The position numbers and the translations under genes were made by a program. The notes under the pieces are model-generated. The model searched no databases and was not told the origin of the DNA. It saw only the letters and a program-made list of their open reading frames with translations. A stretch of DNA of 63,960 bases, counting the filler, from Hausera hauseri (lineage: Eukaryota): the NCBI GenBank assembly GCA_046269625.1. It is 10 parts of 10 records of this genome, joined end to end, with 100 filler letters (N's around TTAATTAATTAA, not from the genome) between each part and the next. Parts side by side here need not be neighbours in the genome. Positions count along the whole stretch, not along the records: positions 59,866 to 63,960 come from JBJURY010765873.1; 9 more parts are not named here. One strand, 5' to 3'. Position 1 is the stretch's first letter. Each line of letters begins with the position of its first letter. Below are positions 43,610-63,960 of this stretch, one piece after another.

Positions 43610-46600
43610 ACTAAGTCCGAATATGTATGTGTCCGGAAATGCGAGAGTCCAAAATTAGTTTCGACGCAACTCCTTCTGCAGTATGCGAAAATGTGGGTGT
43701 CTGGAACTGGGTCAGTCCAAAACTTGTTTCGACGTAACTAGTTTTGCAGTATCCGAAAATGTAGGTGTCCGGAACTGAGTCAGTCCAAATTTGTTTCGAC
43801 GCAGCTCGTTCCGCCGGATCCAAAAATGTAGGTGTCCGGAACTGAGTCAGTCCAAATTTGTTTCGATGCAACTCCTTCCGCAGTATTCGAAAATTTCGGT
43901 GTAGGGAACTGGGACAGGCCAAAATTTTTTTGTACCCAACTCATTCTGCTGAATCCACATATGCATTCGTCCGGAATTGTGTCAGTCCAAAATTATTTTC
44001 AGCCCAGCGCACTCCGCTAAGTCCGAATATGTAGTTGTCTGGAAATGGGAGAGTCCAAAATTTGTTTCGACGCAACTCGTTCCGCAGTATCCGAAAACGT
44101 AGGTGTCCGGAAGAGGGTCGTTCCAAAATTTATTGCGACCCAACTCAATCCGTTAAATCTGAATATGCAGGTGTCCGGAACTGTGTCAGTCCAAAATTTG
44201 TTTCGACGCACCTCTTTCCGCCGGATCCGAAAATGTAGGGGTCCGGAACTTAGTCAGTCCAAAATTTGTTTCGACACATCTCTTTCCGCAGTGTACAAAA
44301 ATGAACGTGTCCGTAACGGGGTCAGTCTTTAATTTTTTTCGGGCCAAGTAATTGCGCTTTGTACGAATTTGCAGGTGTCCGGATCTTAGTCAGTCCAAAA
44401 TTTGTTTCGACGCAACTCGTTCCGCCGAATCCGAAAATGTAGGGGTCCGGAACTGAGTCAGTCCAAAATTTGTTTCGACGCAACTCGTTCCGCCGGATCC
44501 GAAAATGTAGGGGTCCGGATCTGGGACTGTCCAAAATTTGTTTCGACGCAACTCGTTCCTATGTATCCAAATATGTAGGTTTCCGGAACTGTGTCAATCC
44601 GAAATTTCTTTTGACCCAAGTAATTCCGCTATATATGACTATGCAGGTGTCCGGAACTGGGTCATTACGAACTTTGTTTCGATGCAACTCCTTCTGCAGA
44701 ATGCGAAACTGTGGCTGTCCGGAAGGGGTCAGTCCAAATTTTTTTGGACCCAACTCATTCTGCTGAATCCACATATGCATGCGTCCGGAACTGGTTTAGT
44801 CCAAAATTCATTTCCGCCCAATTCATTCCACTAAGTCCGAATATGTATGTGTCCGGAAATGCGAGAGTCCAAAATTAGTTTCGACGCAACTCCTTCTGCA
44901 GTATGCAAAAATGTGGGTGTCCGGAACTGGGTCAGTCCAAAATTTTTTGCACCCAACTCATTCTGCTGAATCCACATATGCGTTCGTCCGGAACTGGGTC
45001 AGTCCCAAATTTTTTTCCGCCCAACGCATTCCGCTAAGTCCAAATATGTAGGTGTGCGGAAATGGGAGTGTCCACATTTTGTTTCGGCGCAACTCCTTCC
45101 GCTGTATCCGAAAATGTAGGTGTCCGGAACTGGATCATTCCAAAATTTGTTTCGACGCAACTCGTTCCGCAGTATCCGAAAATGTAGGTGTTTGGAACAG
45201 GGTCAGTACAAAATTTTTTTCGACCCAACTCATTCCGCTAATTCCGAATATGCAGGTGTACGGAACTGGGTCAGTACAAAATTTGTTTTGACGCAACTCC
45301 TTCCGCAGTATCCGAAAATGTGGGTGTCCGGAACTGGGTCAGTCCAAATTTGTTTTCGGCCCAACTCATTGCGATGAATCCGAATATGCATGTGCGCGGA
45401 ACTGGGTCATTCCAAAATTTTTTTCAACCCAACACATTTCGCTTAGTCCAAATATGTAGGTGTCCGAATCTGGGTCAGTCTAAAATTTGTTTTGACCCAC
45501 CTCTTTCCGCAGTGTCCTGAAATGTAGGTGTCCGGAACTGGGTCTGTCCAAAATGTCTTTAGACGCAAGTCGTTCCGCCCGATCCGGAAATATAGGTGTT
45601 CGGAACTGGGTCAGTCCAAATTTTTTGCGGGCCAAGTCATTGCGCTTTTTAAGAATATGCAGGTGTAAGGATCTGGGTCAGTCTAAAATTTGTTTCGACG
45701 CACCTCTTTTCGCAGTGTCCAAAGATGTAGGTGTCCGGAACTCGGTCATTCCGAAATTTGTTTCGGCGCAACTCCTTCCGCAGTATTCGAAAATATCGGT
45801 GTCCGGAACTGGGACAGGCCAAAATTTTTTTGTACCCAACTCATTCTGCTGAATCCACGTATGCATTCTTCGGAACTGTGTCAGTCTAAAATTCTTTTCC
45901 GCCGAACGCACTCCGCTAAGTCCGAAAATGTAGGTGTCCGGAACAGGGTCATTCCAAAATTTATTGCGACACAACTCATTCCGCTACATCTGAATATGCA
46001 GGTGTCCGGAACTGTGTCATTCCAAAATTTGTTTCGACGTAACTCGTTCCAGTGTATCCGACAATGTAGGTGTCCCGAACTGGGTCAGTCCGAATTTCTT
46101 TTCGGACCAAGTAACTGCGCTTTGTCCGAATATGCAGGTGTACGGATCTGGGTCTGTCCAAAATTTTTTTCGACCCAACTCATTCCGCTATATCTGAATA
46201 TGCAGGTGTCCGGAACTGGATCATTACGAAATTTGTTTCGATGCACTCCTTCTGCAGTATGCGAAAATGTAGGTGTCCGGAAATGGGTCAATCCAAATCT
46301 TGTTTCGACGCAACTCGCTCCGTTGAATCCGAATATGTAGGCGTACGGAACTGGGTCAGTACAAAATTTTTTTCGGGCCAAGAAATTGCGCTTTTGTAGG
46401 AATATGCAGGTGTACGGATCTGGGTCTGTCCAAAATTTTTTCGACGCAACTCATTCCGCCGTATCCGAAAATGTAGTTGTACGGAACTGGATCAGTCCAA
46501 AATTTTTTTCGACCCAACACATTCTGCTATATCTGAGTATGCAGGTGTCCGAACTGGGTCATTCCGAAATTTGTTTCGACGCAACTCCTTCCGCAGTATC

Positions 46601-49352
46601 CGAAAATGTAGGAGTCTGGAACTGGGTCAGTCCGAATTTTTTTGGACCCAACTCATTCTGCTGAATCCACAGATGCATGTGTCCGGCACGGTGTCAGTGC
46701 AAGTTTTTTTCAATCCAACTCATTCCGCTTAGTCCGAATATGTAGGTGTACGGATATGGATCAGTACAAAATTCGTTTCGACGCAACTCCTTCCGCAGTA
46801 TGCGAAAATGTGGGTGTCCGTAACGGAGTCAGTCCAAAATTTGTTTCGACGCAACTTGTTCCGCCGTATCCGAAAATGTAGGTGTCCGGAACTGGATCAG
46901 TCCAAATTTTTTCGACCCAACTCATTCCGCAAAATCTGAATATGCAGGTGTACGGAACTGGGTCAGTACAAAATTTTTTTCAACCAAACTAATTCCGCTA
47001 GGTCCGAATATGTAGGTGTACGTAACTGGGTCAGTCCAAAATTTTTTTCGAAGCAATTCGTTCGGCAATGTCCGAAAATGTGGGTGTTCGGAACTGGGTC
47101 AATCCAAATTTCCTTTCGGCCCAACTCATTGCGCTGAGTCCGAATATGTAGGTGTCCGGAACTGGATCTGTCCAGAATATTTTTCGGCCTAAGTAATTGC
47201 ACTGAGTTCGAATATGCATGTGTCCGGAAATGGGTCATTCCAAAATTTGTTTTGACGCAACTCGTTCCGCATTGTCCGAAAATGTGGGTGTCCGGAACTG
47301 AGTCAGTCCAAAATTTTTTTGGACCCAACTCATTCTGCTGAATCCACATATGCATGTGTCCGGAACTGGGTCAGTCCAAAATTTGTTTCGATGCAACTCG
47401 TTCCGCCGTATCCGAAAATGTAGGTGTCCGGAACTGGGTAATTCGAAAATTTTTTTCGATCCAACTCGCTTCGCTAATTAGGAATATGTAGGTGTACGGA
47501 ACTGGGTCAGTCCAAAATTTTTTTGGCCCAACTCATTCTGCTCAATCCACATTTGCATGTGTCCGGAACTGGGTCAGTCCAAAATTTCTTTCGACGCAAC
47601 ACGTTCCGCAGTATCCGAAAATGTGGGTGTCCGGAACTGGGTCAGTCCAAAATTTTTTTCGACGCAATTCGTTCCGCAGTGTCCGAAAATGTAGGTGTCC
47701 GGAACTGGGTCATTCCGAAATTTGTTTCGACGCAACTCGTTCCGCTGTATCCAAAAATGTTGGTGTCCGAAACTGGGTCAGTCCAAAATTCCTTCCGCCC
47801 ACCTCATTCAGCTAAGTCCGAATATGCAGGTGTCCGGAACTGGGTCAGTCCAAAATTTTTTTGGACCCAACTCATTCTGCTGAATCCACATATGCATGTG
47901 TCCGGAACTGGGTCACTCCAAAACTTGTTTCGACGCAACTCGTTCCGCCGTATCCGAAAATGTAGGTGTCCGGAAATGTATCAGTCCAAAATTATTTAAA
48001 CCCAACTCATTCCGCTAAATCTGAATATGCAGGTGTCCGGAACTGGGTCATTCAAAAAATTTTTTCGATCCAACTCGCTTCGCTAATTCCGAATATGCAG
48101 GTGTCCGGAACTGGGTCAGTCCAAAATTTTTTTGGACCCAACTCAATCTGCTCAATCCACATTTGCACGTGTCCGGAACTGGGTCACTCCGAAATTTGTA
48201 TCGACGCAACTCCTTCCGCAGTATAAGAAAATGTGGGTGTCCGGATCTGGGTCAGTCCGAAATTTTTTGGACCCAAATCACTCCGCTGTGTTCGAGTATG
48301 CTGGTGTTCAGAGCTGGGTCAGTCCAACATTTTTTCCGACCCAACACGTTCCGCTAAGTCCAACTATGTAGGTGTCCGGAACTGGGACAGTCCAAAATTT
48401 GTTTTGACGCAACACGTTCCGCAGTATCCGAAAATGTGGGTGTCCGGAACTGGGTCAGTCCAAAATTTTTCTCGACGCAATTTGTTCCGCAGTGTCCGAA
48501 AATCTAGGTGTCCGGAACTGGGTCAGTCCAACATTTTTTCCGACCCAGCCCGTTCCGCTAAGTCCCACTATGTAGGTGTCCGGAACTGGGACAGTCCAAA
48601 ATTTGTTTCGACGCCACTCGTTCCGTTGTATCTGAAAATGTGGGTGTCCGGAACTGGGTCAATCCAAATTTCTTTTCGGCCCAACTCATTGCGCTGAGTC
48701 CGAATATGCATATGTCAGGAAATGGGTAAGTCCAAAATTCTTTTGGACCCAACTCATTCTGCTGAATCCACACATGCATGCGTCCGGAACTGGGTCAGTC
48801 CAAAATTTCTTTCGACGCAACTCGTTCCGCTGTATTCGAATATTTAGGTATCCGGAATTTTATCAGTCCAAAATTTTTTTCGGGCCATCTAATTGCGCTT
48901 TGTAAGAATATGCAGGTGTACAGATCTGAGTCTGTCCAAAATTTGTTTCGAAGCAACTCAATCCGCCGTATCCGAAAATGTAGGTGTCCGGAACTGTATC
49001 AGTACAAAATTTTTTTCGACCCAACTCATTGCGCTATATCTGAATATGCACGACTCCCGAACTGGGTCACTCCGAAATTTGTATCGACGCAACTCCTTCC
49101 GCAGTATGCGAAAATGTGGGTGTCCGGATCTGGGTCAGTCCGAAATATTTTGGACCCAAATCACTCCGCTGTGTTTGAGTATGCAGGTGTTCAGAACTGG
49201 GTCAGTCCAACATTTTTTCCGACCCAACAGGTTCCCCTAAGTCCAACTATGTAGGTGTCCGGAACTAGGACAGTACAAAATTTGTTTTGACGCAACACGT
49301 TCCGCAGTATCCGAAAATGTGGGTGTCCGGAACTGGGTCAGTCCAAAATTTT
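43610..49352. repeat. Satellite array, 68-bp unit (AAAATGTAGGTGTCCGGAACTGGGTCAGTCCAAAATTTGTTTCGACGCAACTCGTTCCGCAGTATCCG)
   Basis: AAAATGTAGG at 45111 and 45179; fills the whole contig. ORFs are repeat translations. Confidence 0.97.
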
Positions 49353-51239: not shown

Positions 51240-54200
51240 TACCCCGAACATTGAATCCATATATTTTCTCATCGATACCGGTGCAGCAATCTCATTACTA
51301 CCACTTTCTTTTCTGGTTCAGCACCTTTCACTTCAAACAAAACCTTTATACACCGCTTTCGGTCAACCCCTTCATATTTTCGGAACATGTAAATTATCTT
51401 TCGATCTTCCGCACTTTTCCTCAACATTTCACTGGACGTTTACAGTCGCTAACGTTTAGACGGCAATACTTGGCTCCAATTTCCTGTCGTTAGTTGATTG
51501 CAAACAACGATGTCTGAAAATACATACAACCGGAGACTGTAACGCACAAACAGGCAGAATGACGACGACAGCGCAGTCTGTGGTAAGGAGGAAATCAATC
51601 ATAAAAAAGTCAATTCTTCATTCTAATTCTGTTAACTATCATGTTTACATCCTAAGTTTTTAAATAATAATGTTGATAGTCAGCCGAAGCTCAATGTTGA
51701 TAGCCACGATCTTGTCGATTGAGTAAAATCATTAAACAAAACCATTTCCCTAAATACTGTCTTTAGTACGACCATTTTAAATCAGATTCCACCCGATTTC
51801 GCACCAGAAATTAACCTACATTCATCCCGTACTGCTAACAACATCGATTCATCGCCATTTCCAATATTTTGGCAACTACCTTTCAGTTTGCAACAATTCA
51901 TCAATACTTCTTGTCCTCGTATACTCCTGAAAACGGCATCTGCATAATATCATTACACAACACCAAAGGCCCATTTGTCAAAAGGTTCGTCCATTATCAC
52001 CTCGCCGCGGGCAGGCAGTAGAGACTGAATTCTTTGAACTTGAACAATCAGGTATTGTTCGTAGATCTAAATCCCCTTGGTCTTCGCATCTCCACGTCGT
52101 TCAAAAAAAGATGGATCCTTCCGACAATGCAGCGATTACCGCCAGCTTAAAACTTTAACCATAATGGATACATACCGACTACCATAGATCAAAGACATAC
52201 TATACCGACTTAATTCTACCCCAGTTTATTCAACAATCGATTTAGCCAAAGCGTGCCACAAAATTCCTGTCGCACCGGAAGACATCGAGAAAACTGCAGT
52301 TACCACACCTTTCGGCCTTTACGAGTACTTGTACATGCCTTTCGTTCTTCGGAATGCCGCACAGACTTCCCAGCGACACGTCGATTCAATCCTTTCAGAT
52401 TTTCCTTTTGCTCATCCATATATTGATGATAACCTTAGTTGCTTCATCTTCTATGAAACAACACAAATAACACCTATGCTCTATCTTCAAACGACTTAAA
52501 CAACACAAACTACAGATAAATTTTGCAAAATGTAACTTCTTCCAAAAACTGGTTAATTTTCTTGGACATTATCTCATCAAACGGCCATTCGCCTCAGCCT
52601 GATCGAATCGAGACTCTTAAAAACGTCCAACTACCTAGGACAATTACAGAAATGTGCAGATTTCTCGGTACCTTACATTTTGTCCACAAATATGTTTCAT
52701 ATTGTTCGTAACTCACGGCACCTTTTGCCCACTTAAGCGGAGGAAAACAAACACCCGAAAATCCAGTGGACACCGTAGCTGGTCGATAGGTTTGATAGGC
52801 TACGCGAAGGACTAAAGACTGTTGAAATACTAACATTTAATAAGCCTGATGCCGAACTCATCTTAGCCACAGATGCATCAACCACCGCAGTAGGCGCCGT
52901 TCTACATCAGTTGTATAAAGGCAAAAATCAGCCTCTAGAATTCTTTTCCAGAAAAATAACACCACCAGAAACTAGATATTCAACTTTCGATCAAGAACTA
53001 CTGGCAATTGTTTTGCCTTGCGAATGAAACATCCTTTCACTCGACAAAAACGACAAATTTCATATTTGTCCACTTTTAACTTCGGCATTAAACAAATTAA
53101 CGGTGTTAACAATCTAGTCGCCGAATTTTTATCTAGATCAGTTAGTTCAATCCATTTTTTACAAATTTTTACTCAGGAAAAACTTCAAGAAAATCAGTCA
53201 TCTCAAGACATTGTTAATTCGATTAAGTCTCACCACATCGTTGACGGCGTGGCCTTAGACACTTCCAAACCAGGCCAATCCAAAATAATTCTTGCTCCAT
53301 CTTTACAAAAACAAGCATTTGATAGCGTACATTCATTACACCATCATGGTGCCAAGGCAACTTTTCGCTTACTTCAACGTCAGGTAGTTTGGCTGTTAAT
53401 ACGCTTTGATGTGCGAGCATGGGTTAAAGAGTGCGTGGCTTGTCAGAAATACAAGACCATAAAACATTTAAAATCACCACTATACCACTTTCGCTGCACA
53501 TCACGTTTTGAATCCGTACATATTGATCTCGTCGGTCCTCTTCCACTAGATAACGGTCATCAATTTATTCTGACCATGATGGATCGTTTCTCGCGATGGC
53601 CAGAAACAATCTTTCTGCGGAGCACAAACACTGACACAATAGCGGATGCTTTCATTCGTACGTGGATTAGTAGGTTCGGATTCCCTCGTTTTGTCATTTC
53701 GTACCAAGGTCCTCAATTCGAATCAAACCTGTTTAAATCCCTGGTCAACCGATTGGAGATAAGCCATATTCATACCTTATCATCCTCAATCGAATGGCCT
53801 TCTCGAACGTTTACACCGAACATTGAAAACATAACTTAGAATTCTTGCACAGTCCAACACCAATCGGTCTACTCTTCTTCCGTTCGTTCTGCTTGGCTGA
53901 TGGAACACTCCGTCCACTTCCATAGAATGCTCACCAACTGAAGCTTTATTCGGAACCCCTGTACGGTCATTGTTTGAACTAACCACCCTAGAAGAGACTC
54001 CTGCAGATGAGATGATACGAACAGCACAGGATCACTTCGTGACAATCAGCAAGGATTTGTTCTGCAGGCTATTACACAACAACAAAACTTACATACCCGA
54101 AGACTTATACTCGGCAAAGTTCGTATGGTTAAAAAATCAAACACCGTCTGTTTTTCAACCGCAATACTTAAGACCCTATAAATTAGTGCAGCTGCATTCA

Positions 54201-56977: not shown

Positions 56978-59765
56978 TTATTCCAAACGCCAATGTCCGC
57001 ACGCCCAACTCTTATTTCGCCCCACCCACTTACACTTATCATCATTGCATGATAAAGCGACTTTTGTATTGGTCATCGTATGCAGCTGGTGCTCAATCGA
57101 TCGGATGATCGTTTGTGACACAACAGCCTTTGATTGTCCTTCTTCTTCTAAATAGATTCGGGGATAATCAGCGTGGTTTATTTCCGTCTGGGCCAACTGA
57201 ACTCCTTTGGCCAGCATTTTCGGTCCACCGTGAATTAAAAGGCTATAACATTTTGGCCGTAGAAATATCCATTCACGATACTGAACCCGACTTTCACTTT
57301 CATCCTTGAAGCAACCGATTTTGTTGGTGATCGCGCTGCTGTACAACAGATGATCCGGTGGATAGTTAGACGTGTCCATTAATCCATCTGACTGCATTTG
57401 CTACAGTAGCTCTTCGCGATTGACTTTTTTCAGCCGCGGGAAAAAACTGTCTGTGTCACCGGCTATTATACTAATGTCACAGCCGTCAAACATTTCCCGG
57501 TAACGTGCTAAATCGCGATGCTATTGTTCATACATCCGCAACTTTCTAAGGTCCAATACCACTTGTCCAATGTAACTTGGCCTGTCCAGAACGACTTTTT
57601 CTCTGTTTAAAAGCACGGCAATCAATCCATCGGCAATGTGCATTGACCGCCAAAACTTCACCTTACTCATGTACGTGACCAACCACTTTTTGCTCTTACA
57701 TAGGCGTACATTGGGCCGCTTTTCCAGATTCTCCCATGTTTTTCCGTACAGGGAATTGTTTTTCAGTATGTAGTAGTCCTTTTCGAACTTTGTACAAGCT
57801 GCGGCTCGTTTTTCTGAATTTCCGTCAATGCATGCCTTGAATATCGGCGCCTGATTGAATTTAATTGCGCGATGCAGCTGTGTGACGCGTACATCGAGCT
57901 GCATGTAGAACTGTAGCAGGTTCCAATAAACCACGTAATTCAGCTTCGGTTTATGCGTCATGAGCAGTTTCTTCACTTTTGAGCCTGACGGACATTGGTT
58001 AAATGGTGCGACTGGTAAATCGTCCAAAACGTCATGCATCTCATCTGGTACCACGGGATCGACCTCCATTATGTGTCCGACTGAGCTTGCCATGTCTGCT
58101 TGTGGTAGATTGACCATTATGTCGTCCAGATCTTCTCTGTCGACAACCCATTTGAATGTACCGTACGCAACAGTTGCAAAAGCGCTTAGCCATACAGGTT
58201 ATTAATATCAGTATACAGCAGTGATGTGGTATCGGTAGCAGGGACCTGATGCTTGTTGATAAATGTCATGCCGCCTTGAATACCAACATCAAACATCCGG
58301 TACATTTCCGGGTCTTGCAGCAGCTCAATATCTTGATCCAATGACATTAGAGCTGACGCAAAACTCATTCCCTGTATGGAATAAAAATTGAGTGGCTCCA
58401 GCCTATCTTCAGCCAACGCTTTCGCTCGAAACGCTTGGAAAACTTCAACTAATAAGTACACGTCCAGTTTAAGATACAGGAGCATGTAATTCAACAAGTT
58501 TCTACAGCCAAGTTCTGCCCAATACCTCTGTGCTTTCCGGTATTCATTCTCTGTGATACCTGTCCATCGCAGCGGTAATTCCTCTTCTGTCCGGAGTCAT
58601 TCATATGATGTTTTAAAGTCATATGGAAATATGCCTTTGCTGCGTGCATTGTGTGTGGGGAACTGTGTCAATGCTACCAGCATATCTGGCAAGGCATTTA
58701 CCAGCTTTGCCAATGATTCATCGGGAAATTGCAATGAATCAAGGAAGCGTACCTGGAACCGGTTTATACGATCAGACAGAGACAGGTATTTCTCCATCGT
58801 AGTCGGAATTATGGATAGTTCCCAATGCGTAAATCTGTTTATTGCCCATTTCAAAATATGATGGCAATTATAAGCTCTGAAGTTATGAAATACCACCGGT
58901 AAGAATGGCCGCACACGCCCTGCCAAATTGCATGAATTACATGCTGCTCCGAGATATCGACCAGTAAAATGATCGTGATCCGGTACGAGCCGTTCCAGTG
59001 AGTCAGGCGTTCATCTTCATCTGTCCACATCAAGGATTTGTTGCTATTTCTACTGTACCAGGGTGCGATTCTAGTTTCCACTATGGTTTGAAACTGCTGC
59101 AAAAAATCGCATACACAATTCCACCCGTGGAAAACATAATATTGAGGTTGACCTGCGGCTTTTATTTGGACAACCAACATACCGACGGCGATTGAAACAC
59201 GTTTTTGGTCATATATGTTGTGCTGTATTAAGATATCTTCGGTATCGGCATATACTACATATGCCAGACTGTCTGTTTTTGACCAATCAGTGAACCTGCG
59301 TTCCGGTTTGACGGGCATGACATACATTTTAGTTCCTAATGAATTTTGTCTGCACAGCGTCACATGTTTCTACCATGTTGTTTCCGACCTGAATCCATGA
59401 AGACATACAGGACACCATTTACACTGTATCCGTTTTTTGGAGGAAATGGTCATTCTCGATGTTCAGTAGCCTGTCCAGATTTGTCACTGCAACGTAATGG
59501 TACTTTTCCTTTTGTTCCAGTAGCAACAAATTTACTGAGCGGCCATTTGGGTTCCGACTACGACAGATTATATCCACATCAGGATTTTAGTAAATTTCTT
59601 TATCCGCCGGTATTTCTACAATTGTGTTGTACCGGAACACGTTGATTGCCAGTTTCGGATTACGTCGTTCAAAAGCCGGAATGGATTGCAGTTTCATCGG
59701 CATCCAGTTTTCATCGAAATCCAATTCGGAAAAATATTTCTGATACTGTTTTGGACGAGATGCAC
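56978..59765 (-). pseudogene. Maverick pPolB (copy 2), frameshifted
   Basis: VVYADTEDIL, DHDHF, KGIFPYD, YTDINNLYG, YYILKNNSLYGKT, AGDTDSF, IGCFKDE, FLRPKCYS; colinear with 20400-23773. Confidence 0.93.
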
Positions 59766-59865: not shown

Positions 59866-60004
59866 TTGTTTTCACAGCATCTGAGAACATTGCCCTGAGC
59901 CGTTCCTGTGTAGCCGAGATCGACTTAATGCGAAGAGCCCCAGATGAATCCACATTAGCGGACTGTATCTGTAACTCTGCGCCGTCATTGAATATAATCT
60001 TCAA
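59866..60004 (-). CDS. Phage hypothetical protein (partial), TTG start
   Basis: RBS AAAGGAG, then TTG-KIIFNDGAELQIQSA...; truncated by the spacer. Confidence 0.65.
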
Positions 60005-60078: not shown

Positions 60079-60738
60079 AACTAAATAGAAATTTTGCGGC
60101 AGGCGAAGAAAGAACCGCAACGCTAAATGGCTGGACGGTAAAGTACCGTTATGCCGGTGCCGGATATATGTATGTAGATATATCCAGGACAGTTTCGTCC
60201 CTAGATAATGGAGCCGCATATACAGAGATAACCAATCTGCCATTTTCTGTTCCGTTCAGACAATCACTTCCTATTGCTAACACGGTTGGCGCTGCGGTTA
60301 TAGGATCCGGTATAGCATTCTTTGACGGGACATCCATGAAGTGTCAATATGAAAAATATACAGCTGCGGTCAGTAACATTATTTTTGGGCTGTTAAGAGT
60401 TGCCTAACTATAGGTGTCATATTCTATATCAGCAGCCGCATAAGTGTCCTGGGACGTAACGTTAATGCCACCATCCAGAGAAATCTCGATACGCGCGACT
60501 CCGGGAAAAGACCCGGAAGGGCCTATATTAAGTATCCGAGTTTTTGGGTGTACTGACTCAGGCAATACGAATACAGTGGCAACCTTATTGGCTGGCAATG
60601 CTTGTATGCCGAGGTGCACATGTACTCGGCTACCGGAAGTATAATAGTAGCATCCACCCCAATTGGGATAATTTTGTCCGGCTAGTGGCGTAAAACTGAT
60701 TATATCCGCTGCGCTGACATTCAATTTTCTATTTAGTT
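60079..60738. other. Putative invertible segment bounded by 13-bp inverted repeats AACTAAATAGAAA (60079-60091 and 60726-60738)
   Basis: Exact inverted repeat; both copies encode L-N-R in frame with oppositely oriented ~110-aa cassettes. Confidence 0.8.
60081..60407 (+). CDS. Silent alternative C-terminal cassette of the receptor-binding protein
   Basis: Open frame LNRNFAAGEERTATLNGWTVKYRYAGAGYMYVDI...EITNLPFS...GLLRVA*, beginning exactly at the inverted repeat and preceded by an in-frame TAA. Confidence 0.75.
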   Translation, partial: LNRNFAAGEERTATLNGWTVKYRYAGAGYMYVDISRTVSSLDNGAAYTEITNLPFSVPFRQSLPIANTVGAAVIGSGIAFFDGTSMKCQYEKYTAAVSNIIFGLLRVA

Positions 60739-61228
60739 CAGTAATATTTGGCGCTTCGCTATATACTTTTTGCACTTCTGTTATGTTCAGCCCGTCAATT
60801 ATGATCTTGTACATTGGCATGTCCGCTACCGCATCGCCGGACTGTATATCTCCCGTTATGTGGCTCGGTACTGCTGGATTTGATTCTGCTGGTGTACCCT
60901 GGATAACTTTCAAACCAATACTCTCGGCTCCGTTATCTTGGTTCCTCTCGTATCTGGCAACAATCAGATCGATACGCTTCATTCCCTGTGATCCATTGAT
61001 AATAGTCAGCGAATCGTAGGTATTCTTTTTTATTGATGCCGTGCACCCCTGATGCATCAACACACCATCTCTGATCTTAATCTCGTTGTTAGAAGACACT
61101 TCTGCTTCCAACTGCATTCCCGTTTGTAAAACATAGGATCCTTCTCCTACAATTCCGATATTTACGTCTCTATCCTGTTCTGAGAATATATGCGCTTTCC
61201 CCGTATATCCTGTAATTATCTCCATCAT
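60404..61228 (-). CDS. Siphophage baseplate/receptor-binding (tail fibre) protein with variable C-terminus
   Basis: Follows Dit/Tal. N-terminus MEIITGYTGKAHI...KRIDLIVARY; C-terminus VFVLPESVHPK...RIEISLDGGINV. Confidence 0.8.
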   Translation of the reverse strand: MMEIITGYTGKAHIFSEQDRDVNIGIVGEGSYVLQTGMQLEAEVSSNNEIKIRDGVLMHQGCTASIKKNTYDSLTIINGSQGMKRIDLIVARYERNQDNGAESIGLKVIQGTPAESNPAVPSHITGDIQSGDAVADMPMYKIIIDGLNITEVQKVYSEAPNITELNRKLNVSAADIISFTPLAGQNYPNWGGCYYYTSGSRVHVHLGIQALPANKVATVFVLPESVHPKTRILNIGPSGSFPGVARIEISLDGGINVTSQDTYAAADIEYDTYS

Positions 61229-62232
61229 GTCTCTCCTTCCAATTTATACACGATTTTTTCTTTTCCGGAAGATATTGTCCAAATCTTCCGGCCAATCGGT
61301 TTCTTCACACTAATCCCTGTCAGATAGTCCTTACCTCCAACAATATCTCCCAAATCAATATTTCCTTCCAGCTTAGTCATTGTCATGTTGTAGGACATGC
61401 TGGATTTCTTAGCCTCAAGTTCTTTGATTCCATTCTTAATCAGGTCTTCTCTCTCGGATCCATTGCTATCATATATGGCAGCAATCTCTTCCATGCCTTT
61501 GAAATATTGTTGAGTCTGCGAAATTGCTCCATTCTGATCAGTGTATAGATGGATAACTAATCTATCCTTCAGCTCGCCTTTTCCTAGACAGATTAGGTGA
61601 TTAATTCCACGCCGGTTATCGTCTGTTGTGAAATTCATGTTATTATCATTGGTCAGCACATACTCCGACGATAAGTCATTAATAGGAACAGCTTCCACTC
61701 TCACATATCCGGCCATTCCTACATCGCCTTCCTGGTATCGTATATTCAGTCGATATCCAACTGATTTTAGCATTTTGGCCAATCCGGCGTGTAACGTGCA
61801 GTATCGGTCGAACTGATAGTTGTTCACTGCTACGCCCGTATCTACAGCAACGCCGTAGAAAAGTCCAGGAAACTCAGTTTCAATCTTATCCTTAATAATT
61901 GAATTAAGTTCCCCGGACGCTACTGCATAATCCTGTCCACTTAATGGCTGTATAATCTTTTTGGTCATCATTCCGCGCCAGGTATCTCCTTTTGCGCGTA
62001 TCGCGTTGGCGCTTGTATCGGTACTGATTTCCCGGACAATTCCACCATACTCTGTATCCGGAGAGAATACTCTGGAACCATACTCAATGGATCCGTCCCA
62101 GTTCCAGCGCTTTAGTTCGATCTCAAAATCATTAATACTGTCTGACTCGTCGGCTCCGACTTCAAAATCAATATTGGCACCCTGGACATAACCTATCTGC
62201 CTTCCGTATTGGTCTGTTTTGATGAGATCCAT
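61225..62232 (-). CDS. Siphophage tail hub/Tal-like protein (ReqiPepy6 Gp37-like)
   Basis: Position after Dit; INHLICLGKGELKDRLVIHLY, DLGDIVGG; overlapping start/stop with neighbours. Confidence 0.78.
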   Translation of the reverse strand: MDLIKTDQYGRQIGYVQGANIDFEVGADESDSINDFEIELKRWNWDGSIEYGSRVFSPDTEYGGIVREISTDTSANAIRAKGDTWRGMMTKKIIQPLSGQDYAVASGELNSIIKDKIETEFPGLFYGVAVDTGVAVNNYQFDRYCTLHAGLAKMLKSVGYRLNIRYQEGDVGMAGYVRVEAVPINDLSSEYVLTNDNNMNFTTDDNRRGINHLICLGKGELKDRLVIHLYTDQNGAISQTQQYFKGMEEIAAIYDSNGSEREDLIKNGIKELEAKKSSMSYNMTMTKLEGNIDLGDIVGGKDYLTGISVKKPIGRKIWTISSGKEKIVYKLEGET

Positions 62233-63062
62233 TCTGGCACGCTCCTCTCCTTAAATACTATAATATCGAAACCGAATTCTCCACTCCAACTTATCAGGAT
62301 ATCTCCTGCTGGAATTTCCGTGAATATGGAATTGCCTGTTGCCTTTTTATAAAATATATTTTGCTCGGTTCCATTCGCAAGTCTCTTAATAATGGTTTTC
62401 TTACGTGAATCAATTACAATATATTCATTTACTTCCAGCGTGTCATACACTTGGTAGACCTGTCCTGCAATCGCAATTCTCGGATTGGCACATGGCCCGT
62501 ATATTACCATGCGGAAGTTACTGCTCCTGTAATGATCAACATGCCAATGCTCTGTTCCAGATACTGGTTTCGAGTAATCGTAGTTGTAATCATAAGGATA
62601 ATCTAAAAAATCATAAGCTTCGCCTTTTCCTGCTGAATCCGGGAAGAAGCTTTTCTCCTGTTCCTCGGCCCACATTGGATAAGGACAGTAGATTCCAATA
62701 TCCATATCTGTCCAGCTATTCCTGGTTGAAGATACCTTGCTGGACATATCCTTGATATAGCAATCAATATAATAGTTTCCGAACCATATACGCCCTGGAC
62801 TTAGATTAACAACGTCATACTCAAAGCAGTTTGTTATCTCGTCCATTTTCGCCTTACGCTCTTCCAATGGCCCACGGAATGTTAATGTAATTTGATATGT
62901 CTTGCCTTCTTTTTCAAACCCGTAGACATCTACGCCCATCTCTTGATCTGTAGTCATCGGCTTCCATTCATACTCATGGAAATAACCGGACGTTGGTCGC
63001 ATCCGGTCACCCACAAGATTGTATTCTTTTCCATTGGAGCACACATATTTGATTTCTATCAT
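62193..63062 (-). CDS. Siphophage distal tail protein (Dit)
   Basis: Immediately after the tape measure gene; CPYPMW, DYPYDYNYDY, IYGPCANPRI, YIVIDSRKKTI. Confidence 0.8.
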   Translation of the reverse strand: MIEIKYVCSNGKEYNLVGDRMRPTSGYFHEYEWKPMTTDQEMGVDVYGFEKEGKTYQITLTFRGPLEERKAKMDEITNCFEYDVVNLSPGRIWFGNYYIDCYIKDMSSKVSSTRNSWTDMDIGIYCPYPMWAEEQEKSFFPDSAGKGEAYDFLDYPYDYNYDYSKPVSGTEHWHVDHYRSSNFRMVIYGPCANPRIAIAGQVYQVYDTLEVNEYIVIDSRKKTIIKRLANGTEQNIFYKKATGNSIFTEIPAGDILISWSGEFGFDIIVFKERSVPEWISSKQTNTEGR

Positions 63063-63960
63063 TCGAATACAACCCCCATATCTCTTAATGCTCGGATCAG
63101 CCCGCGTTCACTGACAACATCGCCACCATCTTTGCCGTCTATAATCGCTATAATCGCTCTTAACAGTGCAATCAGAGTGTCAAGGCGGCTTGATGTCTCA
63201 CTGTCTGATGTTCTAGATACATTTGCTGCTCCCTGCAGGTCGTAGTTTAGGCTGCTCGCATTTGAGAACGGGCTTGTCGCAATGTCCTGAAGCCTAGACA
63301 CTGCAGAATTAATTGCCGGTAGTTCTTCTATTAATCCTTTGGCGAACCCAGCGTCTATCATTTTTCCAACGTAGATTCCCCATCTGGACGCAGAATGAAT
63401 TCCGAAAAACGAAAGCACATTATCTTTAAAACTTCCAAGGACTCCTTTTACTGCATTCCACAATTGACTTCCTGCGTTCCTGAGTCCATTTGCAATTCCG
63501 CTTATAATATTTCTCCCGATGTTTCCCCAGTCAACATTCGAAAATTCATTCCGTATTGACCTTATGATTTCCGGTATCTTTCCTACCAGCATCGGGATTG
63601 CCCGTATAAGTCCCGCCCCTAGTTTTCCAATCATTTCAATCCCGGTCTGAAGGATTTGTGGAAGGTTCCTTGAAAATTCCGCAATCATCCTGATCACTAT
63701 GGTTGCCGCGGCTGATATAATCTGGGGAAGGTTGTTCACGACCCCATTGACAAGGCTTAAAATAAGGTTTCCTCCTGCCGATATGATCGTTGGAAGCGCA
63801 GATGAGATAGTCCCTATGAACTGTGCTACCACGTTTCCTGCTCCAAGGATCAGAGATGGAAGGTTCAGAAGGATTCCATTTACGAAATGTACGATGAAAT
63901 TGCTCCCAGATTCCAGCATCAATGGTAGTTGCGTCTCTATTCCCGTCTTTAGGTTTCCGA
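63059..63960 (-). CDS. Tail tape measure protein, C-terminal part
   Basis: Amphipathic repeats (LP.II..G..II..LV.G), DWGNIGRNIISGIANG, FFGIHSASR. Confidence 0.9.
   Translation of the reverse strand, partial: GNLKTGIETQLPLMLESGSNFIVHFVNGILLNLPSLILGAGNVVAQFIGTISSALPTIISAGGNLILSLVNGVVNNLPQIISAAATIVIRMIAEFSRNLPQILQTGIEMIGKLGAGLIRAIPMLVGKIPEIIRSIRNEFSNVDWGNIGRNIISGIANGLRNAGSQLWNAVKGVLGSFKDNVLSFFGIHSASRWGIYVGKMIDAGFAKGLIEELPAINSAVSRLQDIATSPFSNASSLNYDLQGAANVSRTSDSETSSRLDTLIALLRAIIAIIDGKDGGDVVSERGLIRALRDMGVVFE

Follow-up and report, generated by a model that had tools for sequence, protein, structure and literature searches.

The window, by which we mean the whole stretch of DNA analysed (63,960 nucleotides from the Hausera hauseri assembly GCA_046269625.1), is made up of separate contigs strung together with N spacers, so the DNA to the left of position 59866, where the phage contig starts, is unrelated to the phage. 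This contig covers the last part of a siphophage tail module, all on the minus strand, in which the receptor-binding protein (RBP) gene carries an expressed C-terminal cassette (A) and is followed by a silent cassette (B) on the opposite strand (Table 1). In relatives, the gene that comes after the array belongs to cluster c0 (56 ORFs from 51 loci). The phage contig also occurs in gut metagenome runs from pigs and bovines, and its presence in the H. hauseri assembly is probably that of a passenger. The named carriers of its cassettes are [Clostridium] scindens and the phages CS266P1-4, whose host is given as Clostridium_AP, and from these labels we infer a host of the Clostridium scindens group. 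A visual scan of the nine unrelated contigs that make up positions 1-59765 showed features of eukaryotic look: a long contig of tandem repeats at about 45000-49300, fragments resembling a retrotransposon integrase at 53018-53839, and others, at 57500-59400, resembling a broken DNA polymerase B.

Table 1. Features of the phage contig, with the related locus in two host chromosomes
Feature	Position	Strand	Remarks
Tape-measure protein (TMP), 3′ part	63059..63960	-	phrog_5493, phrog_58
Distal tail protein Dit	62193..63062	-	phrog_33, E 7e-17
Tal-like minor tail protein	61225..62232	-	phrog_538, E 9e-74
RBP gene, 274 aa	60404..61228	-	constant N-terminus plus expressed cassette A; after TMP-Dit-Tal
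Constant N-terminus, codons 1-164	60737..61228	-	conserved in 80 IMG/VR loci
Cassette A, expressed, 110 aa	60404..60736	-	in 83 other proteins
Head site 1, in gene	60723..60738	-	TAAA-TAGAAA-ATT; putative crossover spacer TAGAAA, 60726-60731
Tail site, between the two 3′ ends	60404..60417		exact palindromic spacer CTATAG, 60408-60413; window arms CTAA / GTGT
Cassette B, silent, 108 aa	60081..60407	+	predicted RBP head domain; expressed in 10 proteins
Head site 2, inverted, after TAA	60079..60094	+	TAAA-TAGAAA-TTT; spacer 60086-60091
Next tail-region gene, truncated at contig end	59866..60034	-	phrog_12931 / phrog_30034
Resident tail-only locus	L171:8300-19000 (G409), L173:9180-19500 (G406)		beside cell-surface polysaccharide region

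The constant N-terminus and the two cassettes

The 80 IMG/VR loci that share the constant N-terminus diverge in their C-termini past ELNxK. The PHROG matches of the window's RBP end near residue 170, with phrog_9994 spanning residues 2-171 only, and a model of the full RBP matches the RBPs of the lactococcal phages p2 and 1358 (best E 2.1e-4), being confident only to residue 162. Of the 84 proteins with cassette A, including that of the window, 83 split at the same junction, and this joins the cassette to 16 N-terminal groups (two of them fragments), some only 10% like the N-terminus in the window. In run X1 a variant of cassette A lies silent behind a TAA. The fold of cassette A was assigned from its position because the model lacked confidence (pLDDT <50). 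An identical cassette A follows three different N-termini in the RBP genes P0017, P0019 and P0020. The record of each gives a C. scindens contig of 4,290,604 bp, and they probably come from three prophages of one chromosome.

The reading frame of cassette B (60081-60404) is preceded by an in-frame TAA and has no start codon ahead of residue 30. Its model is an eight-stranded domain (pLDDT 88.9), and the best ten Foldseek rows are all RBPs of the lactococcal phages TP901-1 or p2 or of Listeria phage PSA, with TM scores of 0.55-0.68 and E values of 0.0025-0.008, none reaching E≤0.001. The cassette is therefore predicted, from the model, to fold like the TP901-1/p2 receptor-binding head. There is no detectable similarity between cassettes A and B (E 4.9). 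Cassette B is found in frame within 11 longer proteins, ten of which split at LN(R/G)(K/N), with eight N-terminal groups represented. In P0002 it follows an N-terminus 82% identical to that of the window, and in P0004, labelled C. scindens, it is expressed on the N-terminus of the resident locus described below. In both exact DNA matches it is silent.

Scanning IMG/VR with peptide patterns of cassettes A and B returned no relative, and no close relative of B, no Pfam family was matched by the RBP or either cassette, and a sequence search of the PDB gave no useful match. In the ESM Atlas the matches were to unnamed clusters only. Amongst 20 other cassettes two scored above the Pfam cut-off, one as an H-type lectin and the other as an MSP1 jelly-roll.

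The original prediction described this locus as an invertible switch, and its description of the layout holds. A repeat at codons 164-168 recurs inverted and opens a 108-codon frame on the opposite strand, the two cassettes are nearly equal in length and their stop codons overlap at 60404-60407. Whether cassette B is ever fused to an RBP N-terminus was a point on which that prediction turned, and such fusions exist, P0002 among them. That inversion would swap the C-terminus in frame is supported by ten of the 11 fusions and by exact inversions in relatives, while the window copy itself was seen unflipped. What the prediction lacked was a second class of site and the sharing of cassettes between phages.

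Head sites and a palindromic tail site

The two head sites form an inverted repeat of 16 nt, complementary at 15 of the 16 positions and exact over 13 nt, with the first covering the codons for ELNRK. They are 628 nt apart, and the 660 bp given previously is the span of their outer edges. An inverted match of 13 nt arose by chance in six of 20,000 shuffles. When we looked 200-550 nt beyond the stop for an inverted copy of the junction of at least 12 nt, it was present at 38 of 64 loci (the window and the 63 of the 80 relatives with enough downstream DNA), against 0/64 on the direct strand and 0/64 for two other gene regions. The consensus of the head sites is TAAH-TAGAAA-DTT, with DTT in 21 of 22, part of the set having been collected with a pattern that included this right arm. 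Crossover was assigned to TAGAAA because of the comparison of phage L094 with the chromosomal locus L173 of G406. The left flank of head site 2 is similar to the outermost site in the four-cassette array of L094.

The arrangement of the window recurs without differences in run X18, from which the window sequence may itself derive, and the same layout is present in complete chromosomes and cultured phages. Amongst the contigs of four runs the strand-changing joint of the window copy was absent; in these runs the N-terminus of the window was also found with other cassettes, and other flanks adjoined the A-B pair. A contig of run X2 has both another partner and a variant of A, so it was counted as a swap of the pair and not of a single cassette.

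Three variations on the head site were noted. In sister groups (L006-L074 and L178-L255) the arms are the same and the spacers are TAGCAA or TGGCAA; exchange may be confined to separate, incompatible pools by the spacer. In G409 (C1:292244-292270; L170:6245-6271), about 10 kb past the RBP gene of a prophage, two head sites are fused, with no intervening cassette, into a perfect palindrome. In phage phiCs5676-1 (L149:6144-6815) an element with an annotated transposase, which we take to be of the IS200/IS605 family, interrupts the silent head site, so here the switch should be locked.

The tail site, its core lying between the stops of the two cassettes, was not part of the original prediction. 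Its consensus is the palindrome TAAH-CTATAG-DTTA; in the window the core is exact and both arms deviate. Head and tail sites have like short arms of 3-4 bp and unlike spacers. Of 23 distinct pairs, 16 have the exact CTATAG core (by pair type, 13 of 19; with one mismatch allowed, 20 pairs), compared with 0/44 TAGCAA pairs and three of ten TGGCAA pairs, all of one type. Of the cassettes that recur, 11/12 have more than one partner, against 4/11 in the TAGCAA group and 0/4 in the TGGCAA group, though the loci are related and partly redundant, making these contrasts between groups, and the Fisher values computed for them, less independent than the counts imply. When the same cassette was compared with different partners (21 comparisons, for which 17 pairs were listed by hand from those with a core or near-core), the matches numbered 17.0 out of 20 nt ahead of the core and 5.5 out of 20 nt past it. 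In the cleanest case, the cultured phages CS266P1 and CS266P3 align at 98.5% as far as the silent head site, then have different cassettes, and become collinear again at the first base of CTATAG.

A cassette in these loci is bounded by sites with common arms and different spacers, and the swaps break at both. This is the arrangement of engineered recombinase-mediated cassette exchange (RMCE), where a cassette is placed between spacer-variant lox or FRT sites with like arms and unlike spacers. The CTATAG site and the single-cassette swaps suggest a natural form of RMCE; unlike the engineered one, it would be known from the comparison of sequences only. In the window copy itself the tail arms are degenerate and A and B are found together beside other flanks, from which it would seem that the pair moves as a unit, and A and B probably travel mostly together.

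Alternatively, the head sites could work as proposed while the single swaps come from RecA- or phage-recombinase-mediated microhomology, CTATAG being a by-product of overlapping stops or the site of another protein. The arms are indeed short, four of the 11 TAGCAA-group cassettes re-pair without the motif, and seven of the 23 pairs do not have the exact core, three of them not even with one mismatch. In several pairs both TAGs of CTATAG serve as stops, and CTA/TAG is what overlapping TAG stops would give. The core is, however, retained in L093 and L116, whose stops are both TAA and lie outside it. The breakpoints fall repeatedly on the 6-bp core, with the flanking base moving with its cassette, and among 2,156 matches to AAH-N6-DTT in 208 kb the two commonest spacers are TAGAAA and CTATAG. 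We regard this alternative as unlikely, although it is the strongest of those considered.

Recombinases and a resident tail-only locus

In 16 of the 80 IMG/VR relatives a tyrosine recombinase (PF00589, assigned by scanning four of the 16) follows cassette 2, and a second cassette pair usually lies behind it. The enzyme is about 330 aa long and XerC/D-like, has no arm-binding domain, and gives its best match, below the cut-off, to NF040815; what we take to be the usual tyrosine-recombinase catalytic motifs are visible. It adjoins three of the 18 gene-proximal pairs with the site type of the window, two of these being the resident chromosomal locus, and 19 of 27 pairs in the TAGCAA sister group. 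In the window no recombinase occupies the position it has in relatives, past the silent site, because the next gene of the window directly adjoins that site. The earlier statement that no recombinase lies next to the cassette is therefore correct for this contig. The only serine recombinase found is a large integrase past the lysin, with none at the array. The recombinase gene of L094 (L094:4070-5059) has 60% G+C, compared with 43-46% in the parts of the window's RBP gene, hinting that it is a separately acquired module.

In five couples of near-identical relatives (L020/L023, L116/L128, L053/L055, L065/L068 and L066/L074) the two cassettes are exactly inverted in one member relative to the other. 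The inverted segment is 853 bp at 99.9% identity in L020/L023, with flanks at 99.8% and 98.6%, and 646 bp at 96.7% in L116/L128; neither has an adjacent recombinase, and no recombinase match was found in any of the five records of the recombinase-less inversions, which are 20-87% complete. L053/L055 and L065/L068 differ in addition by a block of 1.8-1.9 kb, consisting of the recombinase and two cassettes, that ends in directly repeated head sites. In L002/L003 the whole cassette pair is replaced while the upstream DNA is 99.5% identical. The window has the layout of the form without the block, and from the sequences either loss or gain of the block would fit. In L057:5916-10462 the tail genes are repeated in inverted orientation just past the RBP stop, reflecting either a large inversion or a mis-assembly.

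Both genomes of the G406 genus that were available (2/2) contain an array of four sites, and its recombinase shares 98-100% identity with the one in phage L094. The same two genomes have a separate prophage with two copies of the same site and no such enzyme. Across 61 relatives of G406 the recombinase was found in two at E≤1e-100. The array of G409 lies in a locus of regulator and tail genes only that is collinear at 94-95% with that of G406 and occupies the same place in the chromosome. The genes of this resident locus encode an ImmA-like protease, an Xre regulator, tail completion, tube and chaperone proteins, TMP, Dit, Tal and RBP, followed by the four-cassette shufflon; among the 17 ORFs scanned in G409 none matched a capsid, terminase, integrase, holin or lysin. 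Tail and regulator genes in a conserved place, with head, integrase and replication genes missing, are what is expected of an F-type tailocin, as judged in two genomes, and the locus may be such a tailocin or a domesticated prophage remnant. In G406 (L173:11606-12208) a frameshift follows residue 25 of the expressed cassette in the resident RBP, and the recombinase is intact.

Phage L094 and the G406 array have three segments in common at 98-100% between unrelated flanks, the segment with the enzyme being inverted, and the resident enzyme has the same head sites on its flanks. Together with the presence of the enzyme in both host chromosomes and the resident N-terminus of P0004, this makes action in trans on the window copy likely as judged from sequence, with a host sample of two genomes. 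The original prediction had the enzyme acting from elsewhere or lost, and each part is partly right: a block with the recombinase is present or absent between relatives, and a matching recombinase is found in the host chromosomes. We consider it probable that the window holds a two-cassette tyrosine-recombinase shufflon without its own recombinase that would swap the RBP head, the likely enzyme coming in trans from the resident locus or a co-resident phage.

The same block differences, exact between direct sites, would also be expected were the two-cassette form a frozen relic, that is, a dead-end product of excision that no longer flips, with the two orientations arising from separate excisions out of an enzyme-bearing parent. 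The four runs without a flipped joint of the window copy and the interrupted silent site of phiCs5676-1 agree with this. A relic would not, however, account for silent cassettes that are nearly all open frames behind intact sites, nor for a near-identical intact enzyme in both host chromosomes; and 15 of the 18 pairs have no enzyme, yet swaps are seen between near-identical phages (L002/L003 and CS266P1/P3). A frozen form therefore seems improbable. It is less probable still that the enzyme driving the probable shufflon is the integrase of the phage or a host Xer-type recombinase instead of the resident one. Complete relatives do encode a tyrosine integrase, which resembles the shufflon enzyme at only 33-36%, but neither CS266P1 nor CS266P3 has any tyrosine-recombinase match in its genome despite their site-exact swap, and it is the resident enzyme that lies between the same head sites, in a segment found inverted. 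The repeat could also be due to chance or faulty assembly, given a short, AT-rich site whose pattern matched 13 of 401 Lachnospiraceae-level genomes, about the control rate (among the inspected genomes with a match the array was in G406 only), but the excess over controls in the 64 loci, the complete chromosomes, the cultured phages and the identical copy in run X18 make this explanation negligible and we rejected it.

Proposed exchange of tips and comparison with known systems

These comparisons show that crossovers at head sites invert a cassette pair, replace the pair between phages, and add or remove the block of recombinase and two cassettes, and that replacements of single cassettes likewise end at a site. 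A broader scheme, which we put forward tentatively and which may well not hold, is that tips are exchanged communally, the resident locus supplying one recombinase for two spacer-orthogonal sites, one on either side of each head cassette, so that unrelated phages, temperate or lytic, would flip, drop or trade single tips among themselves and with the resident locus. A single XerC/D-like enzyme would bind the common TAAH...DTT arms, and the different 6-bp spacers would keep head-head and tail-tail reactions apart, spacer identity being known to limit the partners of tyrosine recombinases. One head-head crossover would give a flip or an excision, while a head-head and a tail-tail crossover together would exchange one cassette between DNA molecules. 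With the enzyme supplied in trans from the tail-only locus of the C. scindens group or from a co-resident phage, all phages passing through this host could draw on a single pool of receptor-binding tips, and these would presumably determine host range.

The switch alone follows a known principle; what would be new is the pool in common use, the donor in the resident locus and the exchange at two spacers. Host range would then take the form of a pool of 21 or more tip types that phages of one gut bacterium have in common. The C. scindens group makes secondary bile acids, and such a pool bears on the difficulty of plaquing these phages and on retargeting them in the laboratory. If the scheme is true, the recombinase, being small and having two 14-bp sites that are naturally orthogonal, would be a candidate tool for exchanging cassettes in gut clostridia.

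The closest published system is the Rin shufflon of Bifidobacterium prophages, which has an armless XerD-like tyrosine recombinase, a constant RBP N-terminus of about 165 aa, TP901-1-like variable heads of 95-110 aa and a short asymmetric site in the gene (PMC6109161); the same type is reported from Eggerthella lenta prophages (PMC8778435). The locus here resembles it in its constant N-terminus and variable heads, in the short asymmetric site in the gene and before the silent cassettes, and in inversions at the sites between related genomes, in our case relatives and not the window copy. The head site differs in sequence from the published rix (PMC6109161). Unlike Rin, the window copy has no adjacent enzyme, and relatives either have the enzyme midway along a four-cassette array or lack it. 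The central palindromic class of site, cassettes common to unrelated phages and a candidate enzyme donor in a resident locus are further differences. The insertion or deletion of a block between direct sites seen here also differs from Rin, where such loss is assumed to be avoided, and that paper also proposes a second invertible locus without a recombinase, served in trans (PMC6109161). Our results bear on both of these points, deletion between direct sites and service in trans, which that paper leaves open.

The likeness to gin, cin and R64 in the original prediction stands in part, the enzyme being a tyrosine recombinase of the Rin/Rci type and not of the Gin/Cin type. The Gin, Cin and Min invertases cross-complement one another. 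Those of Mu (Gin), P1 (Cin) and p15B (Min) likewise swap a host-recognition C-terminus in frame (PMC6109161, PMC13418256). They are serine invertases, in contrast to the PF00589 enzyme here, and a serine invertase was rejected since the array-linked enzyme belongs to PF00589. The R64 pilV shufflon (Rci) also has a tyrosine recombinase and tail-to-tail cassette pairs between short asymmetric sites. Its cassette pairs are fixed segments, unlike those here, which are re-assorted at a central palindrome and occur in phages. The R64 shufflon is cited in PMC9881135, and this paper and PMC13418256 deal with gene-altering inversions and a gin shufflon.

Tailocin fibre loci of Xenorhabdus have spare tips and inversion, with a recombinase proposed at another locus (10.1101/2025.04.19.648921). 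There the tailocin locus has no enzyme, whereas here the tail-only locus has one and the phages do not. The accessible portion of the description of phiCs5676-1 mentions neither inversion nor recombinase (PMC8005731). In a literature search of largely open-access main texts we found nothing on this locus, a second central site or a tail-only locus in C. scindens. A diversity-generating retroelement was rejected because cassettes A and B are unrelated, there is no long repeat and no reverse transcriptase is present in the part of the contig analysed. Downstream of a relative without a silent cassette, at L004:9137-10390, there is a reverse-transcriptase-like ORF, with a match to PF00078 that is below the cut-off.
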